DNA from: Planctomyces sp.
Lineage (GTDB): Bacteria; Planctomycetota; Planctomycetia; Planctomycetales; Planctomycetaceae
DNA length: 64,000 bases
Direction of reading: 5' to 3'
Assembly: GCA_005798445.1 (NCBI GenBank)
Contig: SYJG01000071.1
Coordinates: 3,452 to 67,451 of the forward strand
Shown: one piece after another, positions 8,651 through 18,564 of the stretch
Layout: the number at the start of each line of letters is the position of its first letter
How positions within the stretch are numbered: the stretch's first letter is position 1
The notes under the pieces: generated by a model
Told to the model about the DNA's origin: nothing
Databases searched by the model: none
What the model saw: the letters and a program-made list of their open reading frames with translations, nothing else
Made by a program: the position numbers and the translations under genes

Positions 8651-9721
8651 TCAACCGTGGTCGGCCAACGCCTGCAATTGGATCGCATCTTCCAAAGTCT
8701 GAATGAACAGGTCTTTTAGTTCGTCGGGTTTCTGTACTCGAACGTGGCCAGCCCATGACAAAATCCAATGCAGGATTTCACTGAGGCCATCGACCTGAAA
8801 GCTGAGGGTCAGGCTGCCGTCTTTGTGAGTTCTCGCCTTTTGAGTGTGGTGCCAGATTGTCTCGATCACGACCTTGGCAGCAGTGGGCTTGAACTTGAGC
8901 TCGATGTCGTAAGATTGATCGCCTCGAAAAACGGCCCATGCGTTCCCAAAGTAGGTCTGCAGATCGAAGTCTTCCGGAATGAGGGCAGGCTCCGCTTGCA
9001 TCCGTAATGCCTTGAACCGAGCCACGCGAAATGTCTTCGGGGCTGTCTCATCTGCCATTGTTCCGATGATGTACCACGCATTCTTGATCAGACACAGCCG
9101 ATACGGATGGAGGTTCAATTTGACCGGAGTGGGTTCGTAGGGACTTTCGTAAAGCCCGCTGATTTGTTTCCCCTGCAACAAGGCCAGTTGCACCGTCCTG
9201 ATGACTTCATGATGGCGACTATGGTCCACCAGCTTGAGGTCCAGAACGGATACCAATCGCATTGCATCGTCGATCAGTTCTTGCGTCTCCTCTTTCGAGA
9301 CCGCAGCTAGTTTTCGAGTTGCTGGGGTTGCTCCAGCCGTGACATCCATTCCCGGTGCCTTTGTGATGGCTGCTGCGAGCGAAAGTCCCAACACTTCATC
9401 ATCGGTGAGTGTCATCACTGGAAAGCGAAAGTCCGGTCGGACTCGAACAAACTGCTGGTCTCCCTCTCGGTAGTAGGGAATCCCAGCAAACCTCAAAACG
9501 TCCAGGTCTCGATAGACCGTTCTTTCTGAGTATTCGAGTTCCTCAGCGATGGCTTTGGTTGTCCATCGTCCTCGGCTTTGAACCAGTTCCAGAACTCGAA
9601 GAACTCGTGCCAGCCGGTCAGCCTGACGGACACGTCGATCTCGATCAGGCCTGTCCCGCTTATTGGGGTTCGGACCCGCAGACTTGGGCTTCGGCTTCTT
9701 CTTCGTCGGTCTCTCCGCCAT
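8651..9721 (-). CDS. WYL-domain transcriptional regulator (HTH_11 + WYL + C-terminal extension)
   Basis: Winged HTH (RWTTKAIAEELEYSERTVYRDLDVLRFAGIP) and a WYL core (HPYRLCLIKNAWYIIG...TFRVARF). The N-terminus is basic. The ATG shares one base with the stop of the upstream gene (TAATG). Confidence 0.85.
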   Translation of the reverse strand: MAERPTKKKPKPKSAGPNPNKRDRPDRDRRVRQADRLARVLRVLELVQSRGRWTTKAIAEELEYSERTVYRDLDVLRFAGIPYYREGDQQFVRVRPDFRFPVMTLTDDEVLGLSLAAAITKAPGMDVTAGATPATRKLAAVSKEETQELIDDAMRLVSVLDLKLVDHSRHHEVIRTVQLALLQGKQISGLYESPYEPTPVKLNLHPYRLCLIKNAWYIIGTMADETAPKTFRVARFKALRMQAEPALIPEDFDLQTYFGNAWAVFRGDQSYDIELKFKPTAAKVVIETIWHHTQKARTHKDGSLTLSFQVDGLSEILHWILSWAGHVRVQKPDELKDLFIQTLEDAIQLQALADHG

Positions 9722-10785
9722 TACTTTCCTCGTTCCCCAAAGGACACCCGTTGAAGGGCATCCTCAAATGCTTGTCGATGAAACGTGCGGTAGTATGCCG
9801 CTCTGTAGCTGGTGATGACATTCGCGACGTGATGTGCCCGGCAAACTGCCCAACGGCTCGCCGCGATCAGTCTTTTGAAGAGCAATTCACCGTTCAACCC
9901 GTGTCGATGTTCCAATCCTTTGAGTACGGGATTCCATAATTCGTGCTGGTCGGTCATTCGAGCTTTTGCCGCCGCCAGTACAAAACGGTAGGTCGCTTCC
10001 CAAGGAAGTCCGGCGTGCCGATGCAGAAACTTCATGATAGTTTCCTGGGACAACAACGGCAGCAGCGGCGTCATTTCGGTCTCGACGATTGGCCTCCGAA
10101 TTCTCTTGGATTCCTTTGCAAGATGTCGTTTCAAGTATTCGGAAACGACATCAGGATGAGAATTACCAATCTGGTCCAGAGCAGTCACTGATCCCAAGTC
10201 TTTGATTCGGGATGGGCACAACTGGGACAGCAGAGACCGGACAGTTGCGGATTCGAATTGGAAGACCCCGTCGGTATCACCTTCCCGAATTGTTTCAAAG
10301 ACCGCTTTCTCATTCATCTTGACTGGCGTCTTCGGGAACCGCATTCGGAGCAACTCGGGAACTGCCTCCAGTGCAGTCATTGCATGAAGTGAAACGTTGG
10401 GATGCTGAGGTGCGTCCCATGCTCCGTGATCCGATGGCATCACAACAAACTGAATCGTTGGTGGTTCGCGACTTGATGTGAGCCAGAGCCTTTGGAAATG
10501 CGTGTCGTAGCGGACAGGATCGACTTCCGAGAATCCGAGCAAGAAAAAGATGACGGAAGAGCCAGCGGCCCCAATCAAATGAAAAGTCGCCTTCTGCTGA
10601 CGGAGTTGGTCACCGTACTCGACAATGCGAACCAAGGATTCCTGAAATCCCAGCTTCCGAATGAGGCGGACCTCGGCCTCAAAGAGCGGTTCCGCCCGAT
10701 ACTTGCTCTCCTTCTCATACTTGATTCCAAGCGATAGCCGGCATCGCTCAACGATGGTATTGAAGGTCTTTTCCGAGGATTCCAT
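9721..10785 (-). CDS. truncated DNA polymerase III alpha (DnaE)-like protein, predicted catalytically inactive
   Basis: Collinear similarity to the DnaE palm/fingers core:
- IGAAGSSVIFFLLGFSEVDP matches GRGSaAGSLVaYaLkITdlDP.
- GDTDGVFQFESATVRSLLSQLCPSRIKDL matches t.gVFQlES.GMkdLikrLqPd.FeDm.
- CRAHHVANVITSYRAAYYRTFH matches FNKSHSAAYALvSYQTaWLKaHY.
- The acidic PDxDxDF motif is replaced by PPTIQFVVMP.
I prefer ATG 10785, which is preceded by GGAG. The track ORF starts at a TTG (10800). Confidence 0.6.
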   Translation of the reverse strand: MESSEKTFNTIVERCRLSLGIKYEKESKYRAEPLFEAEVRLIRKLGFQESLVRIVEYGDQLRQQKATFHLIGAAGSSVIFFLLGFSEVDPVRYDTHFQRLWLTSSREPPTIQFVVMPSDHGAWDAPQHPNVSLHAMTALEAVPELLRMRFPKTPVKMNEKAVFETIREGDTDGVFQFESATVRSLLSQLCPSRIKDLGSVTALDQIGNSHPDVVSEYLKRHLAKESKRIRRPIVETEMTPLLPLLSQETIMKFLHRHAGLPWEATYRFVLAAAKARMTDQHELWNPVLKGLEHRHGLNGELLFKRLIAASRWAVCRAHHVANVITSYRAAYYRTFHRQAFEDALQRVSFGERGK

Positions 10786-10884
10786 GTTCTGCTCCACCAA
10801 TGGTCGCTGTCGGATAGAGTGGCATGGTCCCTCGTCACGGATGGGTCAGTCCTCATTGAGAAATCTGACTTCGCGGCTCTGACT

Positions 10885-16650: not shown

Positions 16651-17466
16651 TCAGTCGGCGGAATCCAGGTTGAAGCGTGCAACGTCTTCCGAACTGATTG
16701 TGCGTTCGATCGTCGTTGCCGCCGCGGTAAACATGTGGATTAGATACCCAACTCGCCTCGTAGTCCGCTCGATCATCGCAGGGACGGTGACCTCCTCCTC
16801 AAGAATGGTGATGTTCCATTCCTGAGTGCGGGCAACAATCCATTGATAGAGGTCATCCGGATGAGGAAGGGCCGTCCCCACCTTGATCGGAAACCGTGCC
16901 CGCATCTCTTTGGACAGTCGCTCCGTCCACTCTCCTTTCCGTTTCCCTTGAGTTCTCCTCAACGTGATCGCTGAAGCGATCCAGATCGCCGGAGCTTCGT
17001 CGATCAACTTGAGCAGTTTCCCTTCTAATCTACGGCGGCGAAGAGCTCCCACTTCATCGAGGTAGACGATCACTTTGTCGCTGTCCAACGCACCGTCGTA
17101 TTGAAGAGCCTCCAACTCTTCAACGGTGACGTTTTCGCAGTCGATCGGATGGAACGAATACTCGCTTCCAGAGAGAGCAGCGAAGATTCCGTTGTGCGGA
17201 GCCCTGCCTTCGGGAACGGCCTTACAAGATGCACACTGACCGCAAGGGTCAAAAGTGGGCGTCCTGCTGGTACACACCATCGCCCGAATGCCGAGACTAA
17301 TGGTGCGAGTTTTTCCGGATCGGTTGGGGCCTGTAAACAAGGCATTGCACGGTCCGTTTGCGAGGAAGTTCAGCCAGACCTGAATCATCGCCGCGTTCCC
17401 AGCTATCTCTTTCCATCGTTCCGGGAACCATCGTTGAATCCAACTTGGGCTTGGAGACCAGCTCAT
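16651..17466 (-). CDS. AAA+ ATPase resembling the clamp-loader subunit DnaX (gamma/tau) N-terminal module
   Basis: Walker A FTGPNRSGKT. Zn-module-like CTSRTPTFDPCGQCASCKAV, compared with DnaX C...PCG.C..C. Walker B VIVYLDEVG. LLKLIDEAP compares with ALLKTLEEPP. The ATG overlaps the upstream stop (ATGA). Confidence 0.6.
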   Translation of the reverse strand: MSWSPSPSWIQRWFPERWKEIAGNAAMIQVWLNFLANGPCNALFTGPNRSGKTRTISLGIRAMVCTSRTPTFDPCGQCASCKAVPEGRAPHNGIFAALSGSEYSFHPIDCENVTVEELEALQYDGALDSDKVIVYLDEVGALRRRRLEGKLLKLIDEAPAIWIASAITLRRTQGKRKGEWTERLSKEMRARFPIKVGTALPHPDDLYQWIVARTQEWNITILEEEVTVPAMIERTTRRVGYLIHMFTAAATTIERTISSEDVARFNLDSAD

Positions 17467-18299
17467 TTCGCACCTCCCTTCTTTGTGGCAGCGAGGTCTT
17501 TCAAATCGCTGGCCACAACCGTTGTCCTGGGAGGATCAGATCGAAAATCACCGTCAGCATCGTCAGCCGGAGGCAAGTCCTTGCCTGACATTGAGGTTGT
17601 ACCTGACGATTGACGTGACGATTCAGACTTCCAACCGTCAGTGATGGGCTGCACTTGTCTTACACTCGGTTCAAACTTGAACGTCTCCAGTCGAGTCAAC
17701 TTGCAGCGACTTCCATCTTCGGCATGGCTCAGTTCGATTTGAACTCCATAGCCCAGCAGAACCGGGATGAGCCGGGCTAACCTGCGGCTGAAGATGTTCG
17801 TGAAGGTGGGGATCTCCTGAGAACATGGGATAGACCCATCCCTCTGGAGTCCCCGAAGCCTTTGCAACAGAACCACGGTTCGGTCATTGAACACCGGGGC
17901 CGTCACGTTCTTCGGCATTGAATTCGCCAAAAGTAGGATCGCCTGAACGATCAAATCTTCGTCGGTCTCGACGGCTTCAGGTTCCGTCAACCGTCGGCCT
18001 CCCTTCCGGCACTCCTCACGGATCTGTGCCATCAGGAAATCACGCTCGCTGGCCTTCAGGATGCCTCCATTGCTGATCTCGTAAAACACAGAGACCAGAA
18101 GATCCTGAAACCGTTGGCTGTCCACGGGCCATTCGGTTTGAAACCCATCACTGGGAATCAAGACGGTCGGCTCCAGATGGGTGTTGAGGAAGAACTCGAC
18201 CTTGTCTTCCTGCAACTGCGTGTAGATGTCGGTCCAACGGGACTCACGCGGTTTCCGCTTTTGACCCACCACCCCCTGATTGACGGTACCTTGACTCAT
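17463..18299 (-). CDS. hypothetical protein coupled to the DnaX-like ATPase
   Basis: I prefer ATG 18299 (MSQGTVNQG...). The track ORF begins at a TTG (18407). The 4-nt ATGA overlap with the downstream gene implies an operon. No family recognised. Confidence 0.5.
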   Translation of the reverse strand: MSQGTVNQGVVGQKRKPRESRWTDIYTQLQEDKVEFFLNTHLEPTVLIPSDGFQTEWPVDSQRFQDLLVSVFYEISNGGILKASERDFLMAQIREECRKGGRRLTEPEAVETDEDLIVQAILLLANSMPKNVTAPVFNDRTVVLLQRLRGLQRDGSIPCSQEIPTFTNIFSRRLARLIPVLLGYGVQIELSHAEDGSRCKLTRLETFKFEPSVRQVQPITDGWKSESSRQSSGTTSMSGKDLPPADDADGDFRSDPPRTTVVASDLKDLAATKKGGAK

Positions 18300-18564
18300 C
18301 GCAACTGCCTTTCGTTGGTGGCGATCTCGGGTTTGCAGGGTTGACGATTCAGTCAGCCTGAAAACTGCAAGGTTCCGAGTCGCACACCATGAAGGGCGTG
18401 CAATCAAATCCGTCGAAGCCGACCAGGACGGGGCGTCATAACTCGCTGGAGAAATAGGGCGTTGTGATTTTCATTTTTCTTTCCGCCCTATTCGCAAATC
18501 CCCGAACACTGACTATTCACTTTTGGAAAGCCGAGACTTTCAAGAATTCCAGAAACGGCTTAGA

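Follow-up and report, generated by a model that had tools for sequence, protein, structure and literature searches.

Organization of the locus

The DNA analyzed here is a stretch of 64,000 nucleotides (nt) from a Planctomyces sp. (GenBank assembly GCA_005798445.1, contig SYJG01000071.1), called the window below. Between positions 8651 and 18407 it carries a block of 13 co-oriented open reading frames (ORFs), in which look-alikes of two replisome components, the DNA polymerase III (Pol III) alpha subunit DnaE and the clamp-loader ATPase DnaX, are accompanied by nuclease-like proteins, a DUF932 protein and a WYL-type regulator. Comparison of the window with related loci (L001-L036 and the P0146 contig, with Pfam-annotated stretches of about 20 kb for ten loci) indicates that this block probably forms the conserved backbone of integrative genomic islands that make up one family in Planctomycetota and insert beside tRNA genes (tRNA-Arg in this lineage). 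The family carries swappable anti-phage defence genes as cargo and is apparently undescribed.

Read in gene orientation, the island would begin with an attachment (att) half-site, followed by optional insertion sequence (IS) and toxin-antitoxin (TA) cassettes, a left arm, a cargo hotspot and a right arm. The left arm would comprise a partner protein of 278 amino acids (aa; g314), the DnaX-like ATPase, an acidic ORF and g78; the right arm would comprise DUF932, g188, g72, a Cas4-like exonuclease, g258, g81, the putatively dead DnaE-like protein and a helix-turn-helix (HTH)-WYL-WCX regulator. From there it would continue through g120, a structured RNA, g163, a beta-CASP nuclease, regulators, an excisionase and a tyrosine integrase to a tRNA gene. 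The features of the window are collected in Table 1.

A first-pass annotation, made from the sequence alone, had described the block as one run of coupled minus-strand genes. An ORF check showed that all 13 ORFs exist on that strand. The ATGA overlap between the 278-aa ORF and the DnaX-like gene (17463/17466), the TAATG overlap between the DnaE-like and WYL genes (at 9721) and the terminator after the 169-aa ORF (a terminator-like hairpin with a 15-bp stem) are likewise real, and the domain calls for the WYL, DnaE-like, Cas4-like, DUF932 and DnaX-like proteins were reproduced by hidden Markov model (HMM) searches. Some details needed correction. DUF932 starts at 15474 by homology (325 aa), not at 15735, and the DnaE-like ORF is real as drawn, with a start that is probably at 10785, giving 354 aa. 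Among the overlaps proposed for g188, g72, the Cas4-like gene and the PD-(D/E)XK gene (g258), the one between the Cas4-like gene and g258 exists (7 nt), while g72 overlaps neither neighbour.

Table 1. Features of the island and of the insertions in it (positions are those of the window)
Feature	Position	Strand	Evidence or remark
g245, conserved, divergently oriented backbone gene, fast-evolving	933..1670	+	35-58% identity in L004, L009, L020
beta-CASP metallo-beta-lactamase nuclease (RNase J-like)	1689..2996	-	Lactamase_B_2 8e-17; TIGR00649 1e-20; PDB RNase J
g163, conserved backbone gene	3903..4394	-	46-52% identity in L004, L008, L009
Candidate structured non-coding RNA, ~170 nt	4470..4638	-	80-86% nt identity vs 70-74% in flanking coding sequence
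PAD_porph (Porphyromonas-type peptidyl-arginine/agmatine deiminase family), extra cargo	4735-5595	-	9e-29
g120, conserved backbone gene	5602..5964	-	57-63% identity after WYL in L004, L008, L009, L020
IS21 (IstA/IstB), interrupting the backbone between WYL and g120	5964..8492		32-nt inverted repeats
HTH-WYL-WCX transcription regulator, TAATG-coupled to DnaE-like	8651..9721	-	Pfam, PADLOC
DnaE-like, mini C-family polymerase homologue (reduced palm and fingers), predicted catalytically dead	9721..10800	-	Pfam, AlphaFold2, Foldseek
g81, small conserved gene, upstream of DnaE-like in most loci	10885..11130	-	78-95% identity, 9 loci
g258, putative PD-(D/E)XK protein with N-terminal Cys cluster	11291..12067	-	D99, E114, K116 invariant
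Cas4/RecB-like PD-(D/E)XK exonuclease, four-Cys cluster	12061..12900	-	PDDEXK_1 8e-30
g72, small conserved gene	12907..13125	-	Position conserved, 58-88% identity
g188, conserved N- and C-terminal domains, low-complexity linker	13139..13705	-	67-96% identity, 7 loci
169-aa ORF and terminator-like hairpin, variable slot, not backbone	13727..14305	-	Hairpin 13727-13764
DUF932/TIGR03299, 325 aa, first right-arm gene	14497..15474	-	Pfam 4e-63; TIGR03299 1e-79
Cargo hotspot, empty in the window copy	15475..15791		Between g78 and DUF932
g78, small ribbon-helix-helix-like (pattern only), last left-arm gene	15792..16028	-	19 homologue clusters
Acidic low-complexity ORF, 132 aa	16184..16582	-	Slot conserved, sequence poorly
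DnaX-like AAA+ ATPase, gamma/tau domains I-II only	16651..17466	-	Weak DNA_pol3_delta2/DnaX N-terminus match, AlphaFold2
g314, 278-aa partner, unknown fold, ATGA-coupled to DnaX-like	17463..18299	-	Homologues in 8 loci
Two TA cassettes, HigB/HigA and TacA/GNAT toxin	18641..20495	-	HigB_toxin, HTH_31, TacA1, Acetyltransf
IS481-like DDE (rve) transposase gene, accessory, beside att core	20608..21669	-	Pfam HTH_32/rve/rve_3
att-type core GTCATGGCACT + ACGGAACCGAAGG, anticodon-arm segment of tRNA-Arg(ACG)	21983..22006		Inferred distal island end

Two conserved arms flank a hotspot for defence genes

The right-arm order DUF932, g188, g72, Cas4-like, g258, variable slot, g81, DnaE-like, WYL is kept in L001, L016, L018/L003, L004, L011 and L020. 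The arm is present in at least six independent Planctomycetota elements, whose DnaE-like proteins are 42-92% identical to that of the window and whose neighbouring proteins are 63-97% identical; partial right arms were found in L005, L006-L009 and L013. Over all recurring elements, identity of the DnaE-like protein to the window copy ranges from 38 to 92%. DUF932 shows 76-92% amino-acid identity in L001, L004, L011, L016, L018, L020 and L013. The test of gene order that the first-pass annotation had called for thus shows co-conservation across divergent Planctomycetota elements.

The relation between the two arms can be seen in the most divergent locus, L036 (DnaE-like 38% identical), where a single contig carries the partner, the DnaX-like gene, g78, cargo, DUF932 and the DnaE-like gene. 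The P0146 contig has the same order, again with both arms flanking cargo. These two layouts indicate that the two replisome look-alikes belong to the two arms of one element that flank a cargo hotspot. For close relatives of the DnaE-like, DnaX-like, WYL and g78 proteins, the longest contig reported is in each case 28,467 bp, which suggests that they sit on one contig. For most DnaE-like loci the view reached about 4 kb upstream of DUF932, and for most DnaX-like loci 10 kb downstream; a DnaX-like gene was found within the former distance in none of eight DnaE-like loci, and L001 (93% identical) diverges from the window just upstream of DUF932. The possibility that the DnaX-like pair is itself cargo was considered and rejected, because look-ups centred on g78 show both arms flanking cargo on single contigs.

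Rather than being one self-contained system, as had been proposed, the 10-kb block therefore represents two conserved arms of a larger island, which exceeds 22 kb here. The limits first drawn for it are not boundaries either: IS21 is an insertion inside the element and the TA cassettes also lie within it. The 169-aa ORF, which had been counted among the members of the block, occupies a variable slot; it has no homologue in any related locus, and a Metallophos gene stands at its position in L011 and L018.

The window copy has nothing in the hotspot between g78 and DUF932, so that its left and right arms abut there. At the same place L036 carries a Dam methylase, a tetratricopeptide repeat (TPR) protein, a HIT protein and a PtuB-like protein, and the P0146 contig carries a type I restriction-modification system together with CTD6/MC2. 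Cargo upstream of DUF932 was also seen in L020 (HsdR), in L011 (a TmtA (Tiamat)-like protein and SNF2) and in L016 (an NsnB/HEC-03B-like ATPase, Menshen/HEC-03-like), and further defence-type cargo among the relatives includes a Ppl-like protein, GmrSD and Mrr. The defence genes of known type vary from relative to relative as cargo and do not belong to the conserved backbone.

Ends and mobility of the island

That the block is mobile DNA, as first suggested, agrees with the tyrosine integrase, the excisionase-like HTH_17 gene and the flanking tRNA of relatives, with the tRNA-Arg half-site at the far end and with the low GC content. In relatives the gene of the g245 type is followed at the far end by HTH proteins, an HTH_17 excisionase-like gene and a tyrosine integrase; Phage_integrase and HTH_17 matches were obtained there in L011, L012 and L020. 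Towards this integrase end lies a tRNA-Arg gene in L004 and L009 and a tRNA-Ser gene in L020, the only locus in which a called integrase stands beside the tRNA.

At the other end, L023, L030 and L033 carry upstream of the g314 arm the 3' half of a tRNA-Arg, consisting of ACGGAACCGAAGG and then the T-arm. L028 keeps the core only, like the window, in which the 15-nt core is at 21992-22006. The homology that the window shares with L023 and L028 ends exactly at 22006. Their position between this att core and the left arm places the IS481-like gene and both TA cassettes inside the island. The TA cassettes are accessory stabilisation genes of the island; in L027/L028 the DnaX-like arm is preceded by the same cassettes, and in the P0146 contig by TacA-GNAT. 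IS481-like homologues with about 70% nt identity stand beside the g314 arm in L024 and L028, and a second IS481-like copy is found in the window at 30131-31237. The GC content is 51-55% over 1-26 kb (apart from the IS21 bin) versus 57-62% beyond, or about 52% versus about 59%, a compositional difference that supports a foreign origin of the island.

The rve gene and the DnaX-like gene were also considered as a transposase-ATPase pair of the Tn7/Mu type. This was rejected: the rve gene is a typical single-ORF IS481-type gene, is absent in most loci and is separated from the DnaX-like gene by the TA cassettes.

A 49-nt repeat identical to the 3' end of the IS481-like transposase genes occurs at 18566-18614, 19566-19614, 20609-20657 and 30132-30180, with a copy after each TA cassette. 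The resulting array has the order rve-repeat, HigBA-repeat, TacA/GNAT-repeat, and L028 shows a similar succession of rve, HigBA and TacA-GNAT (about 70% identity). It looks like the product of cassette-wise accretion, or of repeated IS insertion and deletion.

The 15-nt core derived from tRNA-Arg, CTACGGAACCGAAGG, occurs a second time without mismatch at 31503-31517, 44 nt from the stop codon of a giant RTX gene, and a partial copy is found near 31545-31557. The interval 22007-31517 holds TPR proteins, a 495-aa unknown ORF and the second IS481-like gene. The second copy of the 15-mer suggests, tentatively, that this interval is a second islet accreted at the same site. The giant gene (31561-63993, minus strand) is a single unbroken ORF, at least 10,810 aa long and extending past the end of the window, and its C-terminal region of about 1000 aa carries RTX calcium-binding repeats (HemolysinCabind, 5e-64).

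A reduced C-family polymerase homologue, predicted to be catalytically dead

The first-pass annotation had called the two replisome look-alikes 'dead DnaE-like' and 'reduced DnaX-like', and both descriptions are borne out by sequence and predicted structure. In Pfam, the DnaE-like protein matches DNA_pol3_finger (PF17657, 2e-15) and only the first ~100 positions of DNA_pol3_alpha. Its alignment with Taq Pol III alpha covers residues 390-454 and then jumps to 649-846. The AlphaFold2 model (359 aa) has a pLDDT of 89.8 and a pTM of 0.88, and the only PDB matches found with Foldseek at E<=0.001 are Pol III alpha and PolC (TMq 0.61-0.75). No PHP domain was matched with Pfam or NCBIfam; the protein starts within the palm, and the model contains no PHP barrel. 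Thumb, beta-binding region, OB fold and tau-binding domain are likewise lacking, as every full-length member ends with the fingers at about 355 aa.

Throughout the family the GSxxGS nucleotide-binding motif and the finger motifs GDTDGVFQxES, FQExIM and xRAHHxAN are kept. At the strand expected to carry PDxD, the family has 'EPPxxQFVV' ('EPPTIQFVV' in the window), and a near-invariant His (H139) stands where the third Asp is expected; the family alignment has no conserved acidic residue at the expected catalytic strands. From the correspondence of these positions to known DnaE motifs, we infer that the protein lacks the catalytic Asp triad.

The homologues form 76 clusters, and those members that cover at least 90% of the query are 335-380 aa long. 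Few matches carry a source name: these are from Planctomycetota, apart from one partial sequence labelled Desulfobacterales and one genuine clostridial DnaE. None is annotated as more than 'hypothetical' or 'DNA polymerase III alpha'. The ratio of non-synonymous to synonymous substitutions (dN/dS; pairwise Nei-Gojobori estimates against seven relatives, with dS saturated for L020) is 0.16-0.25 for the DnaE-like gene, compared with 0.035-0.13 for the large backbone genes (WYL, g258, Cas4-like, g188, DUF932 and beta-CASP) and with values of up to 0.28 for g81 and up to 0.20 for g72 among the small genes. The DnaE-like gene is the fastest-evolving gene of the block, at about 2-3 times the rate of its neighbours. 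In the more divergent loci its product shows 42-54% amino-acid identity against 58-88% for the other block genes, and its variation clusters at residues ~107-160, 215-250 and 280-310. The tightly conserved lengths of the DnaE-like and DnaX-like proteins, together with this dN/dS, indicate that the DnaE-like gene is, as judged from its pattern of substitution, a functional gene under purifying selection and not a fragment.

A 2026 survey of bacterial polymerases contains only DnaE1-3 and PolC in this family and describes the PHP domain as universal in it (PMC12926913). The short dead C-family form therefore appears to be undescribed. The DnaE-like protein does match phage DNA polymerase PHROGs; those models are full-length, with 476-1190 positions (782-1190 for the two strongest).

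The DnaX-like ATPase and the left arm

The DnaX-like protein of the window carries a Walker A motif (GPNRSGKT), a four-Cys Zn module and a Walker B motif (LDE). Walker A K52/T53, Zn-module Cys65/75/78/81, Walker B D137/E138 and R191 are invariant in the family, which comprises 57 clusters with full-length members of 270-272 aa. R191-F192, in an invariant 'GRF', stand at the position expected for the SRC motif, which makes R191 a candidate arginine finger. The AlphaFold2 model has a pLDDT of 84.9, and its best Foldseek matches are the E. coli clamp-loader gamma/tau proteins (TMq ~0.7), over about 262-277 alignment columns of gamma/tau chains of 360-378 residues. The ATPase motifs are intact, and the protein is predicted to be active. 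In L036 (6360-8422) the DnaX-like protein is more canonical, with GPTGSGKT, CGECKTC and LDEA.

Homologues of the window g314 precede the DnaX-like gene in eight loci (L022-L026, L029, L030 and L033), with the start/stop overlap of the two genes seen in L022-L024; in L036 and the P0146 contig, the gene upstream is a partner by position only. The g314 family has 66 representatives, all of about 240-290 aa, and its profile found no Pfam or PDB sequence match. The C-terminal end of the 370-aa upstream partner in L036 resembles a winged-helix DNA-binding domain. This resemblance is a hint that the g314-type partner may be a DNA-binding or initiator-like protein.

The acidic ORF has tandem repeats in its coding sequence (16149-16313), and ORFs of 129-198 aa occupy the same slot in L023, L036 and the P0146 contig. 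The call of g78 as ribbon-helix-helix-like stands at pattern level, without HMM support. In L036 and the P0146 contig the gene stands between the DnaX-like gene, which precedes it, and the cargo, which follows. The intergenic region that separates g78 from the acidic ORF contains, at 16056-16119, an inverted repeat of 20 nt (85% complementary, with a spacer of 24 nt), a possible operator or attenuator.

Other right-arm proteins

The WYL regulator matches HTH_11 (2e-8), WYL (1e-13) and WCX (3e-15) in Pfam and WYL in PADLOC (2e-31). Its gene abuts or overlaps the DnaE-like gene in L009, L011, L016, L018 and L020. Regulators of this kind are described as nucleic-acid sensors that co-localise with defence islands (PMC9122601; as cited in PMC11551731).

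Two proteins of the PD-(D/E)XK type are encoded next to each other. The Cas4-like protein also matches PADLOC Cas4 (3e-13) and a PHROG exonuclease (5e-20), and the motifs C19, D..ExK, QxxxY and CxxCx5C can be read from its sequence. It scores 46.6, short of the TIGR00372 cut-off of 65, and neither cas genes nor a CRISPR-like array turned up in the block or as far as 31.5 kb. With the motifs and cysteines present, the score below cut-off and no cas or CRISPR neighbours, the protein is better named a Cas4-like exonuclease. For g258 (88% mean column identity across seven loci), the earlier PD-(D/E)XK call agrees with the D99...E114-x-K116 motif and with weak matches to DUF234, its only match in a lenient Pfam scan of unknown ORFs, and to PADLOC PDC-M15A; no Pfam family is assigned.

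Searches against the PDB with the profiles of g258, g188, g81 and the 278-aa partner, and with the single DUF932 sequence, gave nothing significant. Two candidate assignments were dropped on this ground: g81, which has no family or PDB match, as a PC4/YdbC-like binder of single-stranded DNA, and g188, whose C-terminal part weakly matches a RecT-like PHROG (E=0.004), as a single-strand annealing protein. DUF932 matches PHROG 1221, and its function is uncharacterised in the literature searched.

Continuation of the right arm and a candidate structured RNA

Beyond the regulator the backbone is interrupted by IS21, which is bounded by perfect inverted repeats of 32 nt (5964-5995 and 8461-8492) and whose proteins match IstB_IS21 (8e-72), rve and Mu-transpos_C_2. 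It is inserted exactly at the start codon of g120, so that g120 and all genes downstream are cut off from the WYL operon; in the relatives WYL is followed by g120 with no IS between. Nothing is present in the relatives at the position of the PAD_porph gene, which points to a second small cargo slot. A g270 between g163 and the beta-CASP gene was seen only in L008. The beta-CASP nuclease is 74-79% identical in L004, L005, L009, L011 and L020.

Just upstream of the beta-CASP gene lies a candidate structured RNA, placed between g163 and PAD_porph in the window and between g120 and g163 in relatives. It has 54 base pairs, 11 of them with compensatory changes, and is 95.5% paired, compared with 32-46% on sliding the partners against each other. 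Its closing helix of 17 bp precedes a T-run, and the strand is fixed by invariant G-U pairs. No Rfam match was obtained with gathering and E-value thresholds. The RNA is absent from L011 and L005, neither of which has g163 (L011 also lacks g120). Upstream of it (~4640-4700, minus strand), all relatives carry a palindrome-like CTGACCC(A/G)CC-N-TGTC(A/G) motif and a TATCTATAGAG box, which are candidate promoter/operator sequences.

Proposed function and alternative explanations

The island would work in four steps. First, integrase and excisionase would drive it into and out of its tRNA site. Second, the WYL regulator may set backbone expression on a nucleic-acid or nucleotide signal, e.g. DNA damage or infection, and the dead DnaE-like protein, its coupled partner, may help to sense that signal with the retained GS and finger motifs and without catalytic carboxylates. 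Third, the nucleases (Cas4-like, g258 and beta-CASP) might, together with the small conserved proteins, process or recombine island DNA or RNA. Fourth, the DnaX-like ATPase, predicted to be active, could act with its partner at the att-distal end, where its most plausible role would be to recruit or load host replisome parts onto the excised circle.

A more far-reaching reading of the second and fourth steps is speculative, and we regard it as rather doubtful. It holds that the DnaE-like protein and WYL form a new type of sensor, in which an active-site shell binds (d)NTP or primer-template without catalysis and signals to the transcription factor, which switches on excision and/or the defence cargo, while the DnaX-like ATPase, together with its partner, takes over the host clamp or replisome on behalf of the excised island. 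On this same doubtful reading, the signals might be replication stress, collapse of the dNTP pool or a phage replisome-targeting factor, and mobile islands would be using replisome mimics both as sensor and as hijacking device.

Several observations weigh against the integrative-island interpretation. The arms are seen together in only three lineages, because most views end about 4 kb upstream of DUF932 or 10 kb downstream of the DnaX-like gene. The att core of the window comprises only 13-15 nt of tRNA sequence, and the integrase end of this copy lies to the left of position 1, so its integration at a tRNA is not seen. Genes for a replication initiator, a helicase, a primase, a relaxase or a capsid were not recognised, and many backbone proteins have no detectable homology to anything characterised. 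L036 has a DnaE-like gene without WYL, and what ties these two proteins together is only the coupling of their genes.

As the first-pass annotation had anticipated, no named system was matched. PADLOC-DB v2 returned only WYL, Cas4 and the weak PDC-M15A, with nothing for DnaE-like, DnaX-like, g314, DUF932, g188, g81 or g169. The profiles of both look-alikes found no family member in IMG/VR, and in PLSDB the DnaE-like and DnaX-like proteins found only genuine dnaE and dnaX genes. No relaxase, coupling protein or type IV secretion system was detected by Pfam among the window ORFs or in the ~20-kb stretches of ten loci, where unrecognisably divergent genes are possible, and no PHROG or Pfam match to virion, packaging or primase-helicase genes was obtained in the window or the same views of relatives.

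It is unlikely that the backbone or a part of it (g81, DnaE-like and WYL with the nucleases, or the DnaX-like protein and its partner) is itself an anti-phage or anti-plasmid defence or counter-defence system that senses or mimics the replisome under WYL control. Such a system would be in keeping with the typical position of WYL regulators beside defence systems (PMC9122601), with the three nuclease-fold proteins of the backbone, with the weak resemblance of g258 to the PADLOC candidate PDC-M15A and with the defence-rich surroundings in which the DnaX-like pair is always found. The 2-3-fold faster evolution of the DnaE-like protein relative to its neighbours is also what an arms race would produce; its dN/dS of 0.2, however, is relaxed purifying selection and not positive selection overall. 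No PADLOC system matches, and the backbone genes are fixed relative to integrase and att, whereas the bona fide defence genes vary in a separate slot. Fixed positions of the former beside a changing defence slot are the signature of a backbone, not of cargo.

We consider it quite improbable that the element is a phage satellite or cryptic prophage, with a backbone serving as a replication/recombination module that hijacks a helper phage and with look-alikes left over from a phage replisome. With its integrase, excisionase, XRE/HTH regulators and defence hotspot, the layout does resemble that of P4-like satellites (PMC9122126), and DUF932, the Cas4-like protein and the DnaE-like protein match PHROGs (1221, a phage exonuclease and phage DNA polymerase, respectively). 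However, none of the loci contains a recognisable gene for a capsid, terminase, portal or primase-helicase, IMG/VR holds no family member, and the polymerase PHROGs matched are full-length enzymes.

Finally, a fortuitous juxtaposition of decayed fragments, including pseudogenised dnaE and dnaX pieces beside IS elements, is hardly credible: IS21, the IS481-like elements and the TA cassettes do show that the region gathers insertions, but order and length are conserved in many independent loci, all backbone genes tested are under purifying selection, the folds are confidently predicted and the motifs invariant, and synteny together with dN/dS refutes it.

The integrative-island interpretation has several consequences. 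Mobile elements of Planctomycetota appeared little described in the literature searched, and no description of this element was found in the literature on DUF932, Planctomycetes mobile elements, inactive DnaE with WYL or clamp-loader-like anti-phage proteins. New here are two protein families, the putatively dead mini DnaE-like protein and a collar-less gamma/tau-like ATPase with an obligate partner, and one candidate structured RNA. An island family with defined ends, two arms and a defence slot offers a handle for finding new Planctomycetota defence systems between g78 and DUF932, and it may serve for building integrative tools. If the DnaE-like/WYL pair were a sensor-regulator, replication-type folds would be tied to the control of mobile elements and immunity.

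Comparison with known systems

The DnaE-like protein is like Pol III alpha (DnaE1-3, PolC) in fold, finger motifs and GS motif, and differs from it in lacking the PHP domain, the thumb, the catalytic Asp triad (as judged from the alignment), the beta-binding motif, the OB fold and the tau-binding domain. The DnaX-like protein keeps the Walker A and B motifs and the Zn module of gamma/tau and is without the pentamer-building collar domain III and tau domains IV-V. Because the look-alikes lack the tau-binding domain and tau domains IV-V, respectively, they cannot reproduce the tau-alpha contact of a real replisome. Inactive replisome paralogues kept as structural or adaptor subunits are known from ImuB, in the ImuA-ImuB-DnaE2 mutasome, and from clamp-loader delta-prime (PMC6511836). 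In contrast to the present protein, ImuB belongs to family Y and not C; moreover, neither ImuA nor DnaE2 is encoded nearby, no clamp-binding motif was recognised, and the context here is a mobile element.

BrxR, CapW, PafBC and DriD share with the WYL regulator the HTH-WYL-WCX architecture and the position beside defence genes in a mobile island. Unlike them, the regulator described here is coupled to a putatively dead polymerase homologue and is a downstream gene of a backbone operon, not the upstream gene of a specific defence operon. Islands and regions with a TIGR03299 'phage/plasmid-like protein' DUF932 show the same strong DUF932 match and the same laterally transferred context; the other backbone genes are in no described DUF932 neighbourhood that we found.

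Of the elements described so far, the pipolins (PMC11551731) are the closest analogue. Like the present island, pipolins are integrative, commonly at tRNA genes, with direct repeats and without conjugation or virion genes. Both have a small core near the integration site with a tyrosine recombinase, an excisionase, a WYL gene and a polymerase-family hallmark, and both have a variable module of exchangeable defence systems. The hallmark of pipolins, however, is an active primer-independent B-family polymerase (piPolB), whereas that of the present island is a PHP-less, apparently dead C-family remnant; neither the scanned window ORFs nor the annotations of the related loci include a B-family polymerase. 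Pipolins have one core, and the island has two conserved arms that flank the cargo. Unlike pipolins, it carries DUF932, a Cas4-like exonuclease, a beta-CASP nuclease, a DnaX-like ATPase and a candidate structured RNA, no sequence homology was seen between the core genes of the two, and its hosts are Planctomycetota.

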